The notes beneath the pieces were generated by a model. That model saw only the letters and a list, made by a program, of their open reading frames with translations. It was not told where the DNA came from and ran no database searches. DNA of 45,497 nucleotides from the UHGV virus genome UHGV-0106598; one strand, given 5' to 3'. The translations under genes were made by a program, and so were the position numbers. Below are positions 4,570 through 22,233 of the stretch, one piece after another (position 1 is the stretch's first letter; every line of letters starts with the position of its first letter). The stretch is from a virus.

Positions 4570-4899
4570 TTAGTAGGGGATTTCATCGGTATCTGGCGTG
4601 TATTCGATGCAAAGTAACTGCTGGATTTCGTCATCGATAGCAGCAATACGCTGTTGGGCGTCGGCGACTGTTTTCTGTTTTTGTTCACGCAGTTGCTCGA
4701 CCTGTAAACCGATGATGTCGATTGGCTGGGGCTGGTTGACGGTAATTTCAATTTCGCGGCTTTCCAGAAGGATGTACCTGTCTGGAAAACCTTTAGACAT
4801 ATCAACGGTTGCAACTAAGATTTCCCCAGGACAGAAAGTTGAGGTTGGGAATGCATAATTTACATATAGCTTTACGGGGATAGTGGTGCGCGCTTCCAT
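4570..4899 (-). CDS. Hypothetical protein
   Basis: 109-aa ORF with AAGGAG-like ribosome-binding site 6 nt before the ATG; first clear gene of the leftward early operon. Confidence 0.45.
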   Translation of the reverse strand: MEARTTIPVKLYVNYAFPTSTFCPGEILVATVDMSKGFPDRYILLESREIEITVNQPQPIDIIGLQVEQLREQKQKTVADAQQRIAAIDDEIQQLLCIEYTPDTDEIPY

Positions 4900-5129
4900 A
4901 GCGACTCCTTGGTGATGTATACTCGGGACCGATCAGCGAATATTGATCAGCTTCCATAGCGTCAGTGTCGTTGGTCTTTCCTCATCACAAGTTTGGTCAC
5001 TTGTGATAAATCCGAATGGTTTGGTCGCCGTTCGGGGTAACTGGCCCGCCTTGTGCGGGTCTTTTGCTATCTAAAGGGTGCCGGTTACGTTTCCGGCGTC
5101 GTTATGTTTCCATCACGACCGTACGGGGC

Positions 5130-5183
5130 TGGTCTTTCCTGTTTTGAGCTGGTCAGGCTCATGGTCAACGCTGGTCAGGCGTG
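5130..5183 (-). repeat. Degenerate minus-strand copy of the CCACGCCTGACCAGCGT ... AGGAAAGACC cassette, without ATG or ORF
   Basis: Seen in sequence: reverse complement of 5164-5180 is CCACGCCTGACCAGCGT; AGGAAAGACCAGCC follows about 28 nt downstream on the minus strand. Confidence 0.6.
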
Positions 5184-5749
5184 GTACTTCCTCCGGTCTT
5201 TCCCTGGTGTCACGCTGCGGGTTTGGCCTCTCCTGTTGGGGACTCAGGCACAGCGATAAAACCTGGCTGTGTGAAAAAATGGCCCATCGTGCGGACTGGG
5301 CAAAGACTAAACACAGCAAATTGATGATGGGCGCCCGGAATCGAACCGGGTAACGGGCAGGGAGTTCCCGTTAAACACCTGTTCACCACAACCGGGAGCG
5401 CACTCCGCCATTTCAAAATTTAACGACAAAGCTCAAAGTTGAGTCGATGAAGTGCGCTCTCGTGTTGTAGCCAGGACTCTTCCCTGGTGGTCACACCGTA
5501 TCGCCTTGATGGTGAATCAATCGCTCATACCTGGCTGTGGCTTGCACATTCCGGCTACCTGCTATGGAGACAACGCGTTAAGGCTCCGCTTCCATCCAGA
5601 CCGCTTCGACACATGTGCCATATGCCGGCGAAGTCTTTCCCTCTGTCATCGTACTGGCGCCGACGCGCAAAATTTGGTGCCGTCTTTCCGGCTGTCAGAA
5701 CTTGTTTCTGAACAACTGCCGCTGGGTAAGCGTTGTTGATGGAAGTGAC

Positions 5750-5811
5750 TTTACAATTTGTATTTGTAATGGTCAATGTATTTTTAAAAAATAATTTGTA
5801 GTTAGGGGCAA
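5750..5811. promoter_or_regulatory. OL-like operator/promoter region with repeated TTTGTA motifs
   Basis: Seen in sequence: AATTTGTATTTGTAATGG and ATAATTTGTAGTTA on the far side of the repressor gene, mirroring the motifs in the cI/cro intergenic region. Confidence 0.45.
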
Positions 5812-5895
5812 AAAAATATTCACTGTGTAAAGGTGTTTTTGTGTTAGGGGGAAAGTTGCATGCCAGCAGCGGCTGGCCTGGAAATTTGAACTGAA

Positions 5896-6324
5896 CTATT
5901 TTGTCTGGTTTTTGGCTTCAAGTAGTTCTTTTAGCAGTAGATCGAAGTGCTCTCTTTTTTCTTTTAGCTCATTGATTAGTTTATTTTTTTCGCTCTCAGG
6001 CAGTCCTCTGAATAGTTGCAGTAGAGCCTGTTCTTGTGGGGTTAGTTCTTGATTGTAATTACCGGGGTGTAGCGTGGATTCATCCAAATATTCTCCTTCA
6101 TTCATGAAGAAAAAATGAACAGGGTATCCGGTCACTTTTGCTAGCTTGTCTAATTTATCTTTTCTTGGCGTTACCCCATTACACCATGCCTGAACTGATT
6201 GAGCTGTAACCCCAATATGGCGAGCTAACTCAGATTGAGACCAGCCTAAGTCTTTTAGAATCCGTTGTAGTCGGCTAGCAAAAGCCATGTTTTTCGTTTT
6301 TGTGTTCATACCGTAAGGATACAA
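5896..6324 (-). CDS. Phage repressor, CI-like HTH (XRE-family) DNA-binding protein with no recognisable LexA-like S24 peptidase domain
   Basis: HTH segment GWSQSELARHIGVTAQSVQAWCNG; divergent from a Cro-like gene; C-terminal half is helical/charged, lacking the Ser/Lys peptidase signature. Start codon ambiguous (three candidate Met). Confidence 0.7.
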   Translation of the reverse strand: MYPYGMNTKTKNMAFASRLQRILKDLGWSQSELARHIGVTAQSVQAWCNGVTPRKDKLDKLAKVTGYPVHFFFMNEGEYLDESTLHPGNYNQELTPQEQALLQLFRGLPESEKNKLINELKEKREHFDLLLKELLEAKNQTK

Positions 6325-6325
6325 G

Positions 6326-6387
6326 GTTTAATTGTAGGGAGCATTGCAAATATAATTTGTAATTACAGTTATGATTTGTAATGATGG
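6326..6387. promoter_or_regulatory. OR-like operator/promoter region between divergent repressor and cro-like genes
   Basis: Seen in sequence: TTAATTGTAGGGA, TAATTTGTAATTACA and TGATTTGTAATGATGG repeats in a 57-bp divergent intergenic region. Confidence 0.5.
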
Positions 6388-6407
6388 CGCGGACACAAGG
6401 AGTCCAT

Positions 6408-6638
6408 ATGGATAAACAACTGCAAGACAAAATTCTTTCCGTAATGAGTCAATCCGAGTTAGGTCGGCGATTAGGGAAAAAACCACAAACTGTGAGCCTC
6501 TGGTTCAAAGGACGGGTTCCCGGTGAAGAGGTTTTGCGCACATCTGAAGCTCTTGAATGGCGCGTGACCCCTCATGATCTTAGACCGGATCTTTACCCAA
6601 ACCCAGATGACAGCTTGCCTAAAACGGAAGCAGCTTAA
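6408..6638 (+). CDS. Cro/YdaS-like HTH regulator
   Basis: AAGGAG 5 nt upstream of the ATG at 6408 (the longer track ORF from 6381 contains this ribosome-binding site); motif SQSELGRRLGKKPQTVSLW; divergent from the repressor. Confidence 0.65.
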   Translation: MDKQLQDKILSVMSQSELGRRLGKKPQTVSLWFKGRVPGEEVLRTSEALEWRVTPHDLRPDLYPNPDDSLPKTEAA

Positions 6639-6696
6639 CTGTTGGTGAGCCCCAAATCTGATTAAGCGTAATCAATTTTTAGCGACAGGAGACGCT

Positions 6697-7173
6697 ATGG
6701 AAAACCCAGAGGAATTACAAAAAGAGATTTTGACCTGGGCGGCAAGGGCAGGGCAGGAACTCGTCACGATTGAAATCTGCCGGGCCTGGTTCAGTCAGGG
6801 ACGCAATGATGAGTTGAGACTACATGAATTTGAGGACACGGACGGCAACGTGGACTGGAGAGCCATCAACAACAACCGGCAGAAAATCTTTCGCTGGTTA
6901 CGTGGCGAGACAACGGCGGCGCGCCGAAAAACTCAGGTGCTGGCCAGTGTGATGAAAGCCGTGCTACCCGCAGAACGGCGGGCGCGTCTGGAGTCGCCGG
7001 GCGATCCTGTTTTGCTGGCAACGCTGGCGGCAAAAGAAGGTGTGGAGGCGATTAACGCTGTACATCTCCACTTCGCGCCAGAGTTAACTATTCAGGAAAT
7101 TGACGAAGCAATAGCGGCGCTGGTAGCGACGCGAGGGGCAGTGATAAGCACTGCGCAAGGCCACCATGCATGA
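6697..7173 (+). CDS. YdaT/CII-like regulatory protein
   Basis: 158-aa ORF after cro-like gene; NNRQKIFRWLRGETTAARRK resembles recalled YdaT (NQQNIFHRWLKGET). Confidence 0.5.
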   Translation: MENPEELQKEILTWAARAGQELVTIEICRAWFSQGRNDELRLHEFEDTDGNVDWRAINNNRQKIFRWLRGETTAARRKTQVLASVMKAVLPAERRARLESPGDPVLLATLAAKEGVEAINAVHLHFAPELTIQEIDEAIAALVATRGAVISTAQGHHA

Positions 7174-7175
7174 GC

Positions 7176-7212
7176 GCCTGACCAGCGTTTAACTTATACC
7201 GAGGAAAGACCG
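7176..7212 (+). repeat. Conserved cassette copy 1: GCCTGACCAGCGT-N10-CCGAGGAAAGACC-G immediately before the ATG at 7213
   Basis: Seen in sequence; starts right after the stop codon of the upstream gene. Confidence 0.75.
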
Positions 7213-7437
7213 ATGTTAAGACATATTGACCGCATTACCTGGCGTAACGGCTGGCACCTGAATGGGCTCCCGGCACATGTTGCAGAGATCCGCCCCATAT
7301 TCGATGGCCGCGTCGCAGCTGCACGTTCTGTGTGGGAAAAGTACGAAGAAGAAAAAGCGAAACTGCGTGAGCAAAATCTCTCTGGCGCTGCCTATGAGGC
7401 TGGCTGCCGCGTTCTCTCAGAGGCTTTGGGCATATGA
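7213..7437 (+). CDS. Hypothetical small protein
   Basis: 74-aa ORF immediately preceded by the conserved cassette. Confidence 0.4.
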   Translation: MLRHIDRITWRNGWHLNGLPAHVAEIRPIFDGRVAAARSVWEKYEEEKAKLREQNLSGAAYEAGCRVLSEALGI

Positions 7438-11457: not shown

Positions 11458-11667
11458 ATTGACTTAGAAAAAGCCCGGGGCTATAGTTTCCGCGCAGCCG
11501 CAAAATCGGTTGCCGGGATTGCAACCCCGGATATCTAAGTGACGCATAGCCGCGTTAGCGGTTTTTTTATGCGTAAAGTACAGCTACATCTAAATTATGG
11601 TGGGCTGGGCAGGGCCATCGTAAGATGGGCCGGTTTCACTTAGGCCGGTTGTTGCAACCTTGTCCAG

Positions 11668-11710
11668 CTCACCACCCAATGATTGCAACCTGACGGTGGT
11701 GAGTTTTATC
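11668..11710 (+). terminator. Terminator/attenuator-like hairpin (CTCACCACC ... GGTGGTGAG, about 18-nt loop, then TTTTAT) just upstream of the ORF6N-like gene
   Basis: Seen in sequence: perfect 9-bp inverted repeat followed by a T-run; the same intergenic region has repeated TTGCAACC motifs. Confidence 0.45.
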
Positions 11711-11729
11711 ACTAAGTGAGGTCAATATC

Positions 11730-12524
11730 ATGACAACTCAAATTTCCGCACAAACTCTTTCCCCAATCTCTCATCAAAATACGCTTGTCATCACCACCGA
11801 ATTGCTTGCACAACTGTATGGGACTGAACCAGTCCGAATTCGTCAAAACTACTCTCGTAATGAAGGGCGGTTTGTTGAAGGGAGACATTATTTTTTGGTG
11901 GAAGGCGATGAACTACGGGAGTTGAAACGCAAAGTATCTCAAAGCTACTCTGTGAAAATTGCCAAAAATGTACGTACTATCATTCTCTGGACAGAACGCG
12001 GCGCAGCTCGCCATGCCAAAATGCTGGAAACAGAACAGGCCTGGGAAGTTTTCGAAAAGCTTGAAGATTGTTATTTTAGCCAGCGTCCAGAGAGGCGGAG
12101 TACAACTACCGATTACCGTACTCCCTTACGTGATGCCGTTAATATGCTGGTCGGTAAGAAAGGCATGATGTATCCCGATGCCTACACCATGATTCACCAA
12201 CGTTTCGCCGTCTCTCACATAGAACAACTGTCACAGACGCAAATGTTAGAGGCGATTGAATACATCCACTGCCTGCTACTCGATGAAAATCAGCCAACCA
12301 TTCCAGATTTTTCTTTTATCACCACTATCAAAAATGGAAAAGTGACCGGGATGCGCCATGTTGCCAAAGGCGAACATCTGATGACCTTTGACGCTTTCAA
12401 AGAGATCGCTGAGCGGGCAGGGTATCTGGTGATCCACAGCGACAATCTGCGAAGTATGACACTGGATAAATTGATGGTAATGGGGAAAAAGTCGGCTATA
12501 TCCGTTGCTAATTCAGCATTTTGA
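11730..12524 (+). CDS. ORF6N/KilA-N-like domain protein (possible antirepressor-type regulator)
   Basis: N-terminal LVITTELLAQLYGTEPVRIRQNYSRNEGRFVEGRHYF ... ILWTERGAARHAKMLETEQAWEVFEKL resembles the recalled ORF6N pattern; own leader with a hairpin. Confidence 0.45.
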   Translation: MTTQISAQTLSPISHQNTLVITTELLAQLYGTEPVRIRQNYSRNEGRFVEGRHYFLVEGDELRELKRKVSQSYSVKIAKNVRTIILWTERGAARHAKMLETEQAWEVFEKLEDCYFSQRPERRSTTTDYRTPLRDAVNMLVGKKGMMYPDAYTMIHQRFAVSHIEQLSQTQMLEAIEYIHCLLLDENQPTIPDFSFITTIKNGKVTGMRHVAKGEHLMTFDAFKEIAERAGYLVIHSDNLRSMTLDKLMVMGKKSAISVANSAF

Positions 12525-21228: not shown

Positions 21229-21341
21229 TGACCATAAACGGTTTAATCCCCTATAAAACCGTTTAATAAAATTCACGACGTGAATATAATTGTTCATTAT
21301 TCCCTCATTGTATCTGGCGTTATGACAAATGCCATAAAATA

Positions 21342-21357
21342 CTGTATAAATATACAG
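21342..21357. promoter_or_regulatory. LexA (SOS) box CTGTATAAATATACAG overlapping a sigma70-like promoter (TGACAA - 16 bp - TATAAA)
   Basis: Seen in sequence: perfect CTGT-N8-ACAG palindrome with AT-rich spacer, 22 bp upstream of a small ORF. Confidence 0.6.
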
Positions 21358-21379
21358 GTTATAGCATTAGGGGGAAGAC

Positions 21380-21559
21380 ATGAATATTCAAGAATCTATA
21401 GGCGAACTACCGGAAACATGCCGGGCTGTTATCAAGCGTAAGGACGGACACATCGTTGGTGTGCGTGTTCTGACCGATGATGAGCGGATTGCCAGCCTGA
21501 TGGCGTTTCTCGAGTTGGCAGAAATAGCTGGATATACTATTACACCCCCTGACGCGTAA
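21380..21559 (+). CDS. Small protein (59 aa) behind the LexA-box promoter; candidate SOS-inducible antirepressor-type gene
   Basis: ORF MNIQESIGELPETCRAVIKRKDGHIVGVRVLTDDERIASLMAFLELAEIAGYTITPPDA, below the 60-aa cutoff of the supplied track; GGGGGAAG ribosome-binding site. Function is inferred from context only. Confidence 0.4.
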   Translation: MNIQESIGELPETCRAVIKRKDGHIVGVRVLTDDERIASLMAFLELAEIAGYTITPPDA

Positions 21560-21636: not shown

Positions 21637-22233
21637 ATGGCGCAGCATTCATTTATCAGGGTATCCGGCGGTTCGCTAATACCCGCGACACCAGACACGC
21701 AACGCTGGTTGACTGAACGAGTCAAACCAGGTGCTGTTGTGTATGCAGATTTCAAACAGGCACGCAATCCCGCGTTTCACCGTAAATTTTTCTCACTTCT
21801 CAACCTGGGCTTTGATTACTGGCATCCGTCCGGAGGGGCTATTTCTCCTGCGGAGCGCGAACTGGTTCACGGCTACGTTAAGTTACTGGCGTATTACGGT
21901 GGACACGGTGATGTCATGGCAGAGCTGGCTGATCAGTATCTTCTCGATGAGTCGGAAAAGCGCGCGGGGAATATCAGTGCGGTGAAGTCGTTCGAGGCGT
22001 TTCGCGCATGGGCGATTATGGAAGCTGGGTTTTATGACGTTCATCAGATGCCAGACGGCAGTTTGATGCGCGTACCTCGTTCAATCTCGTTTGCTGCGAT
22101 GGACGATCTTGAGTTCGGTCAACTGTATTCAGCCGTTTTAGATGTGCTGTGGAATTATATTTTGTTCCGCACGTTTGCCTCTCAGGAGGCCGCTGAAAAT
22201 GCTGCCGCGCAGCTGCTGGATTACACATCATGA
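21637..22233 (+). CDS. DUF1367-like lambdoid phage protein
   Basis: 198-aa ORF at the nin-region position before the YbcO-like and Q-like genes; family assignment from recalled pattern only. Confidence 0.4.
   Translation: MAQHSFIRVSGGSLIPATPDTQRWLTERVKPGAVVYADFKQARNPAFHRKFFSLLNLGFDYWHPSGGAISPAERELVHGYVKLLAYYGGHGDVMAELADQYLLDESEKRAGNISAVKSFEAFRAWAIMEAGFYDVHQMPDGSLMRVPRSISFAAMDDLEFGQLYSAVLDVLWNYILFRTFASQEAAENAAAQLLDYTS

Follow-up and report, generated by a model that had tools for sequence, protein, structure and literature searches.

A probable lambdoid immunity region of Escherichia coli prophages with a DicA/GtgR-type repressor lacking a peptidase domain

Here, we report an analysis of the region between positions 5,750 and 6,638 of UHGV virus genome UHGV-0106598, which was read as one strand of 45,497 nucleotides (nt) in full (the window). 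The region probably governs the choice between lysis and lysogeny, as the immunity switch of a lambdoid Escherichia coli prophage that appears complete, with a DicA/GtgR-type repressor set on the lambda plan. The system is ordinary in kind and cleanly dissectable, combining this repressor type with a YdaS/YdaT-type lambdoid switch: the repressor has no peptidase domain, conserved 19-bp candidate operators stand on both sides of its gene, and two candidate antirepressors are encoded elsewhere in the window.

The 2.3 kb around the switch were 100% identical to a chromosomal segment in E. coli A42, ECO20, and ECO21 and occurred at an identity of at least 95% in 473 of 5,426 complete E. coli genomes, chromosomal every time. 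In A42, the prophage is integrated beside tRNA-Leu, downstream of pgsA. Its annotated order is int, DUF4224, Gp157, a 738-amino-acid (aa) exonuclease-like gene, a small gene, and a gene-free gap of ~1 kb, beyond which follow a minus-strand helix-turn-helix (HTH) gene, a "transcriptional regulator," a YdaT-family gene, RepO, and a replicative helicase. The genes of the window are phage-like, as judged from the layout of open reading frames (ORFs) and partial annotation (int, RepO, DnaB helicase, an antiterminator Q homologue, holin, terminase, and a run of large rightward ORFs), and the same genes are present in IMG/VR and in one deposited phage record. A megablast search of positions 4900 to 7200 against 50,697 phage records returned no match, and comparisons were therefore based on E. 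coli and other bacterial genomes and on protein look-ups. Close relatives of the repressor were few (88% identity in Salmonella; 67 to 68% in Klebsiella and others); the Salmonella and Klebsiella loci have the same gene order, and an IMG/VR scan with the close relatives returned mostly identical loci.

The repressor and its operators

The repressor gene (5896 to 6309, minus strand; ATG at 6309-6307) encodes 137 aa, made up of an HTH domain (residues ~9 to 68), a disordered linker, and a C-terminal helical hairpin (residues ~88 to 137). The start called by the NCBI Prokaryotic Genome Annotation Pipeline (PGAP) differs (6288, 130 aa); the gene was taken as 5896 to 6309 because the upstream ATG is present in all relatives and the equivalent of 6288 is a leucine in Salmonella. 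The protein matched HTH_3 in Pfam (E 1.9e-12), with Cro/C1-type HTH models only, and a family profile searched against the PDB matched the DNA-binding domains of the P22 C2 and 434 repressors (E ~1e-15) and no solved structure covering the C-terminal part. The AlphaFold2 (AF2) model (mean predicted local distance difference test score, 78; residues numbered on the 130-aa form) is all alpha and has no strands, with five HTH helices (2 to 61), a disordered segment (68 to 79), a helix at 84 to 94, and a long helix at 98 to 128.

A preliminary description of this DNA had stated that the repressor lacks a peptidase domain and that its C-terminal half is helical and not LexA-like, and both statements were borne out. 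The Pfam scan gave no Peptidase S24 match at an E value of <0.1, and S24 was absent among the 25 commonest Pfam families of 41 family members, these families being likewise Cro/C1-type HTH models only. The 137-aa sequence contains no Ala-Gly or Cys-Gly cleavage dipeptide, and only ~70 aa follow the HTH domain. A cryptic S24 domain, which a profile search might have brought to light, was not detected and is ruled out by the length and fold of the protein; the Pfam scans (the protein itself and the 41 members), the PDB profile search, and the AF2 model all speak against it. As far as can be read from its sequence, the repressor cannot cleave itself, since the S24 domain, the Ala-Gly site, and every other determinant of cleavage are missing. 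This absence is no oddity; lack of the domain is the defining trait of the DicA/GtgR/GfoR class (PMC3121763).

By alignment, the repressor is a full-length homologue and a member of that class of short prophage repressors. It is 33% identical to GtgR of Gifsy-2 over 129 aa (E 5e-23, including the C-terminal helices) and 32% identical to DicA of Qin over 134 aa (E 1e-17, including the C-terminal module), in both cases at full length. A library search (one representative per 50% cluster) returned 930 matches at an E value of <1e-3; among the 150 matches listed, many were 125 to 145 aa long and aligned over the full query, and those family members have in common the motif LT-x2-E-x2-LL-x-LF-x2-LP-x2-E...D-x-L-x2-ELL. 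Orthology to RacR was rejected, as that alignment is confined to the HTH (13 of 33 residues, E 4e-5). Lemire et al. (2011) found that the Gifsy repressors are uncleaved on induction and are removed from DNA by small antirepressors, which are encoded at a distance and directly controlled by LexA, and listed DicA and RacR in the same repressor group (PMC3121763). Repression by DicA is lifted by Rem, a small protein (PMC10448788). The best structural neighbors of the AF2 model were SinR of the Bacillus SinR/SinI pair and the phi106 repressor in complex with AimX, which likewise join an HTH to a short C-terminal helical oligomerization module bound by a small antagonist. Beyond the HTH this likeness is weak (Foldseek E 2e-3; template modeling score, 0.42 to 0.53; root mean square deviation, ~10 Å over the full length), with no sequence relationship in the C-terminal part, and is best taken as an analogy and not as membership.

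On either side of the repressor gene, the preliminary description had seen three TTTGTA repeats and had proposed them as operators of the left (OL) and right (OR) type. To the left of the gene, the hexamer is exact in all three copies (5757, 5763, and 5795); to the right, it is exact in two (6356 and 6375), and the third copy (6332) is a one-base variant, ATTGTA. The hexamer alone is weakly enriched (40 copies versus 26.8 expected in the window). The repeated unit is instead a 19-bp imperfect palindrome, TTACA-N9-TGTAA, which reads TTACAAA-N5-TTTGTAA on the repressor coding strand and is present in five copies, two to the left and three to the right; it looks like a direct repeat because one half-site of each dyad, TTTGTA, is better conserved than the other. 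The reading of the repeats as operators is supported, with their unit and number refined.

Repeat finding grouped 5751, 6344, and 6363 into one 21-nt family, with which a palindrome at 6342 to 6383 overlaps. With at most one mismatch, TTACA-N9-TGTAA occurs in the 45.5 kb only at 5751 to 5769, 6344 to 6362, and 6363 to 6381, and all three exact copies of ATTTGTAAT in the 45.5 kb are the right arms of those sites. At local composition, 0.02 such sites are expected in 182 nt, and three sites were seen in 0 of 20,000 shuffles. Weaker 19-bp copies lie at 5783 to 5801 and 6319 to 6337.

These five sites are candidate operators at the promoters where they would be expected. OL1 (5751 to 5769; TTACAATTTGTATTTGTAA; no mismatches; repeat family D1) lies between the −35 and −10 of a predicted leftward promoter, PL, and overlaps the −10, and the weaker OL2 (5783 to 5801; TTTAAAAAATAATTTGTAG) is just upstream of the PL −35 and is 89% identical over 18 nt to the OR2 region (family D4). 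On the right, OR2 (6344 to 6362; TTGCAAATATAATTTGTAA; one mismatch; family D1 and palindrome I1) holds the −35 of a candidate rightward promoter, PR, and OR1 (6363 to 6381; TTACAGTTATGATTTGTAA; no mismatches) abuts OR2 and fills the PR spacer to the −10. The weakest site, OR3 (6319 to 6337; ATACAAGGTTTAATTGTAG; two mismatches), overlaps the −10 and spacer of a candidate promoter for the repressor gene, PRM.

All five sites have the same positions, order, and spacing in the Salmonella and Klebsiella relatives, whose repressors are 67 to 88% identical to that of the window; OL1, OR2, and OR1 are kept, the OL2 half-site ATTTGTAG and the GGATACAAGGTTT..TTGTA of OR3 are invariant, and, over the set, conservation is seen in the dyad arms and variation in the central bases. 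The relatives with the same sites also keep an invariant predicted recognition helix, VTAQSVQ(A/S)WC. In the heteroimmune phage BUCT708, the repressor is 31% identical and different repeats, of the TTAGA/TCTAA type, are seen by eye at the corresponding places, which is the pattern expected of repressor-specific operators. The comparison of motifs with related immunity regions, which had been named as a check, thus recovered the same sites and argues for OL/OR-type operators flanking the repressor gene.

Promoters, early genes, and the proposed circuit

PL (5748 to 5776, minus strand) has a −35 of TTGACC (5776-5771), a 17-bp spacer, and a −10 of TAAAGT (5753-5748). It scored 9/12 and was the only sigma-70 match at threshold between 4800 and 6800 in the promoter scan; its TTGAC is conserved in the relatives, and transcription would start near 5741. 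The candidate PR (6357 to 6385, plus strand) was assigned by inspection, with a −35 of TTGTAA (6357-6362, inside OR2), a 17-bp spacer occupied by OR1, and a −10 of AATGAT (6380-6385), of which TTG..A and AAT.AT are retained in the relatives; transcription from it would start near 6392. For PRM, the candidate −10 is TATCCT (6316 to 6321, minus strand). It is separated from the repressor ATG by 6 nt, which differ among four relatives and contain no Shine-Dalgarno (SD) sequence, whereas TATCCT itself does not vary in the four. A −10 at this position would start the PRM transcript at the A of the ATG, and we infer a leaderless repressor mRNA. With the start at the ATG, the centers of OR3, OR2, and OR1 fall near −19, −44, and −63, close to the geometry of lambda PRM. 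Leaderless cI and paaR2 mRNAs are precedents (PMC8630535).

The Cro-like gene of the YdaS family is encoded divergently from the repressor (AAGGAG at 6397-6402 and ORF at 6408 to 6638, together 6397 to 6638, plus strand; 76 aa). Its product matched YdaS_toxin in Pfam (35.7 bits versus a cutoff of 30) and phrog_35 (E 2.7e-24). The start at 6408 behind AAGGAG, picked out in the preliminary description from inside a longer ORF, agrees with PGAP, and a length of 76 aa is given both by PGAP and by the gene calls in relatives; AAGGAGTCC..ATGGA is invariant in the relatives, so both SD and ATG are kept, and the nearest upstream ATG in Klebsiella is out of frame (by eye, in the alignment). The start regions of this gene (6396 to 6412) and of the first PL gene (4895 to 4911; start 4899, minus strand) are nearly identical in opposite orientation (CAAGGAGTC...ATGGA) and were returned by the repeat finder as a 17-nt inverted repeat, 88% complementary.

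Next comes a YdaT-family CII analog (6697 to 7173, plus strand; 158 aa), which matched YdaT_toxin (E 2e-15; 57.4 bits versus a cutoff of 21) and the phrog_163 "CII-like transcriptional activator" (E 1.3e-42) and, distantly, the solved YdaT structure 8bt1 (E 1.4e-4). Between the cro-like and ydaT-like genes, a candidate YdaT binding site and analog of the lambda PRE promoter (6658 to 6675; CTGATTAAGCGTAATCAA) matches TTGATT-N6-AATCAA at 17 of 18 positions, the sequence footprinted for CP-933P YdaT between ydaS and ydaT (PMC9986795), and stands in the same place in all five related loci examined. A second YdaT-type site (1581 to 1598; CTGATTAGGCGTAATCAG; 16/18 identical to the first, spacer included) is located at the 3' end of a small gene, ~200 nt upstream of DUF4224 (the xis position) and int, which suggests an analog of PI, likely the CII-dependent int promoter.

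Taken together, these assignments suggest a circuit of the following kind. In the lysogen, repressor dimers, probably joined through the C-terminal helical hairpin, would occupy the TTACAAA-N5-TTTGTAA operators. Occupancy of OR1 and OR2 would cover the −10/spacer and −35 of PR and so keep the cro-like (ydaS) gene, the cII-like (ydaT) gene, and the replication genes off, while OL1 inside PL and OL2 just upstream of it would silence the leftward recombination/int operon. The candidate PRM has a poor −35, which adjoins the end of OR2, and is overlapped by OR3, an arrangement that would allow positive and then negative autoregulation as in lambda. The YdaS-type protein would act as the Cro analog on the same operators and the YdaT-type protein as the CII analog, through the PRE-like site between ydaS and ydaT and its PI-like near-copy upstream of xis/int.

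Antirepressor candidates and rival explanations

Because the repressor cannot self-cleave, induction is proposed to proceed via antirepressors. The first candidate belongs to an SOS module (21322 to 21559, plus strand) composed of a promoter (−35 ATGACA, 21322-21327; 17-bp spacer; −10 TATAAA, 21345-21350), a LexA box, an SD, and a 59-aa ORF (21380 to 21559). The LexA box (CTGTATAAATATACAG; 21342-21357) is perfect, overlaps the −10, and is the only exact CTGT-N8-ACAG in the window. The ORF is followed by a DUF1367/NinB-like gene (21637 to 22233, plus strand; Pfam DUF1367) that is 56% identical to Gifsy-2 STM1020, irsA (E 9e-83). In Gifsy-2, the order is LexA box, dinI, gftA, irsA (PMC3121763), and since the next gene is the irsA homologue, the 59-aa ORF occupies the gftA position. 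On SOS induction, cleavage of LexA would free the promoter at 21322 to 21350, and the 59-aa protein would then take the repressor off the DNA.

A second, larger antirepressor is encoded at 11494 to 12524 (plus strand), where an isrK RNA (11494 to 11568; 76.1 bits) and a C4 antisense RNA (11593 to 11679; 77.7 bits), both above Rfam gathering scores, lie directly upstream of an ORF6N antirepressor gene (11730 to 12524). Its product matched the phrog_4792 anti-repressor (E 2e-146) and Pfam ORF6N. With C4 and isrK directly upstream of ant, the module is like P1/P7 immI and Gifsy-1 IsrK, and the C4/IsrK RNAs would restrain the ORF6N protein. The two candidates are related in part: the 59-aa protein matched phrog_340, which also matches residues 199 to 240 of the ORF6N antirepressor, and direct alignment to residues 201 to 238 of the latter gave 37% identity (E 6e-7). 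The AF2 model of the 59-aa protein is a small alpha-beta-beta-alpha domain.

The SOS module is kept in diverged and heteroimmune relatives. In strain ETEC1738, where the repressor is identical, LexA box, promoter, and ORF recur in a variant with 76% identity; that otherwise similar prophage retains DUF1367, has no ORF6N gene annotated, and apparently lacks the second module. BUCT708 has its own LexA box with the promoter, a small protein 40% identical to the 59-aa protein, and DUF1367. We infer that the most likely function of the 59-aa protein is that of an SOS antirepressor.

Several observations weigh against parts of this reconstruction. Both PR and PRM fell below the threshold of the promoter scan, and a consensus −10, TATAAT at 6351-6356, offers an alternative for PR. 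OR1 and OR2 are 19 bp apart center to center, versus 23 to 24 bp in lambda, and with this spacing lambda-style cooperativity is not assured. No similarity of the 59-aa protein to GftA or Rem could be detected, and homology to either was rejected; the protein has no Pfam family, its model has no structural neighbor (Foldseek against the PDB, nothing below E = 1), and it is called hypothetical in every source. Its link to the repressor could also be mere synteny within one prophage lineage.

In the strongest of three other explanations, the switch has the layout given above but does not owe its induction to the LexA-controlled 59-aa protein, which would come only from the ORF6N protein, upon release from C4/IsrK, or from another prophage's antirepressor by crosstalk (cf. 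Gifsy-2 and Fels-1 FsoA). This explanation agrees with the lack of homology to GftA or Rem and draws on the strong match of the ORF6N protein to annotated antirepressor families, with isrK and C4 directly upstream, and on documented antirepressors that act in trans from other prophages (PMC3121763). We consider it unlikely, as ETEC1738 combines the identical repressor and LexA-box ORF with no annotated ORF6N gene, the heteroimmune BUCT708 keeps LexA box, small ORF, and DUF1367, and the C-terminal segment that the small ORF shares with the large antirepressor leaves room for both to act alike.

Less probable still is a noninducible silencer of the RacR type. The prophage would then be domesticated, with no task for the repressor other than silencing toxic early genes (ydaS/ydaT and others), and the SOS function of the LexA-controlled ORF would be a different one. 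RacR-YdaS-YdaT in Rac does behave as a silencer (PMC5700373, PMC5700377), the element sits at one chromosomal site in the 473 E. coli genomes, and the LexA-controlled operon of Gifsy includes dinI and irsA, the deletion of which had no significant effect on induction (PMC3121763). However, the window looks like a full phage, from int and the replication genes to the Q homologue, holin, terminase, and large rightward ORFs, the same genes occur in IMG/VR and the deposited phage record, and RacR resembles the repressor over 33 HTH residues only.

That the TTTGTA repeats are no operators at all, and reflect AT-rich promoter architecture (UP elements and −35/−10-like hexamers) or sites solely for the Cro-like protein or a host factor, is very improbable: both repeat regions are ~69% A+T, the hexamer alone is mildly enriched, and promoter hexamers overlap the repeats by construction, but five copies of a 19-bp dyad, its N9 spacing fixed, are spread over two separate promoters, with arms conserved and centers variable, and the heteroimmune relative carries its own repeats at the same positions. 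None of these explanations fits the conservation pattern as well as a lambda-plan switch with an antirepressor-inactivated repressor.

Within that switch, a more specific proposal is possible, if somewhat short of probable. The 59-aa protein (phrog_340) may represent a new antirepressor family unrelated to GftA, GfoA, Rem, and Tum, its fold being a repressor-binding module shared with the ORF6N C terminus; the same warhead would then stand under LexA/SOS control in one protein and under C4/IsrK control in the other and would be aimed at the C-terminal hairpin of DicA/GtgR-type repressors.

The PL leader and relation to known switches

Downstream of PL, an untranslated leader of ~840 nt (4900 to 5741, minus strand) precedes the first leftward gene (4570 to 4899). 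It contains no annotated gene and, in the ORF list, no credible ORF, and it is conserved among the relatives in blocks, as a mosaic. As a known RNA it gave nothing in Rfam at gathering scores, with chance-level matches at E values up to 5, and ARAGORN found no tRNA in it. The sequence GGAAAGAC has 10 copies in the window versus 1.2 expected, five of them in the leader (876, 1367, 4542, 4974, 5132, 5196, 5633, and 5682 on the minus strand; 7203 and 9861 on the plus strand). All ten are in the sense orientation of the annotated genes that flank them, minus strand to the left of the switch and plus to the right, and at 7213, 9871, 4539, and 1365 an ORF start directly follows a nonleader copy, the two forming a tGAGGAAAGACC(N)ATG ribosome-binding cassette. 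Two of the copies (7203 and 9861) come after a hairpin, ACGC-CTGACCA-GCGT, that is found again in the leader. Readings of GGAAAGAC as a lambda-type nut/boxB site for an N protein, an HK022-type put RNA, or a CsrA sponge were dismissed for want of support; no N-like gene is annotated and the leader has no credible ORF.

Inside the leader, a conserved structured RNA element of ~160 nt (5470-5627, minus strand) was found in >120 IMG/VR contigs and in unrelated temperate phages (the Uetakevirus SPN1S, Tyrion, and PAT1, the lambdoid mEp390, SopranoGao, and the P1-like SJ46); it is often located beside tRNA genes. An alignment of 29 sequences contains seven base pairs with compensatory changes; this comparative alignment alone gave a signal, single-sequence folding giving none (z = 0.33). 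The element has no family in Rfam 15, a literature search by sequence string matched no paper, and no evidence tying it to the switch was found. A tRNA-like relic at 5326-5406 (minus strand) has GGTTCGATTCCGGGCGCCCA as T-arm plus acceptor end and recurs in the Salmonella relative; ARAGORN made no tRNA call there, and the Rfam tRNA-Sec model reaches 19 bits only. At 4984-5007 and 5040-5065 (minus strand), hairpins stay paired in E. coli, Salmonella, and Klebsiella although their sequences differ (ATCACAAGT..ACTTGTGAT, CCGTAGGG..CCCTACGG, and GCCGGG..CCCGGC), with loops that contain GACCAA, followed by GAGGAAAGACC.

Between the repressor gene and OL2, the Salmonella and Klebsiella relatives carry a 157-aa gene of no Pfam family, 10 to 16 nt past the repressor stop, and then a terminator just before OL2 (gene at L003 3431-3904, L006 3410-3883, and L008 3427-3900). 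The window is without this gene and has in its place ~95 nt (5801-5895) with a duplicated GTTAGGGG(C/G)AAA at 5801 and 5843.

Among known systems, Gifsy-2 GtgR/GftA of Salmonella (PMC3121763) is like the present one in the size of its repressor, the absence of a cleavage domain, and an alignment over the full length that includes the E-x-LL-x-LF-x-LPE-x-EK helices, and also in having a LexA box and a small ORF directly before irsA (here its 56%-identical homologue), far outside the immunity region. Unlike Gifsy-2, the window has no dinI between LexA box and small ORF, the 59-aa protein is not GftA-like, the operators differ, and the Cro and CII analogs are of the YdaS/YdaT type. Qin DicA/DicC with Rem, in E. 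coli K-12 (PMC10448788), likewise has divergent repressor and Cro-like genes and a small antirepressor, encoded a few kb away, that relieves DicA. Rem, however, is an 83-aa protein unrelated to the 59-aa ORF, the signal that induces it is unknown whereas a LexA box is present here, and Qin is defective whereas the prophage in the window looks complete.

The layout resembles that of PaaR2-YdaS-YdaT in CP-933P of E. coli O157:H7 (PMC8630535, PMC9986795) and of Rac RacR-YdaS-YdaT, with which it has the order of repressor, ydaS, ydaT, and replication genes in common. In CP-933P, too, OR lies between the divergent genes, with OL/PL copies beyond the other end of the repressor gene; the YdaT site agrees at 17/18 positions, and the sequence of the window is compatible with a leaderless repressor mRNA. 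The CP-933P switch is an experimental precedent for OR plus OL operators and a leaderless repressor mRNA (PMC8630535). It differs in its operator consensus, GTTTAGTAA, in the paaA2-parE2 toxin-antitoxin genes, which do not follow the repressor here, and in its YdaT, which is only distantly related (8bt1, E 1.4e-4). The lambda, P22 C2, and 434 switches share with the window divergent PR/PRM promoters with three operators, PL operators on the opposite side, and CII-type sites for establishment and int, and P22 C2 and 434 also a homologous N-terminal DNA-binding domain. Unlike in lambda, the absence of an S24 domain and Ala-Gly site here would preclude RecA-stimulated self-cleavage; the operators are 19 bp long, with OR1 and OR2 abutting and only two recognizable OL sites; and no N gene follows PL, whereas a 47%-identical family member has an N-type gene there.

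A repressor class without a peptidase domain is already known; the interest of the system is modest and lies mainly in a candidate new antirepressor family and in clean, testable sites. The region adds a cleanly resolved example of lambdoid switches in which the repressor would be inactivated by an antirepressor and not by self-cleavage, a class common in the prophages of E. coli, Salmonella, and Klebsiella, with this immunity type alone present in 473 of 5,426 complete E. coli genomes. It provides precise coordinates at which operators, promoters, and CII sites can be tested, and it offers a candidate SOS antirepressor whose family (phrog_340) has no function assigned to it. If the 59-aa protein is indeed an antirepressor, it would extend the antirepressor repertoire, and both the response of a given prophage to DNA-damaging antibiotics and the cross-induction of prophages by one another would become easier to predict.

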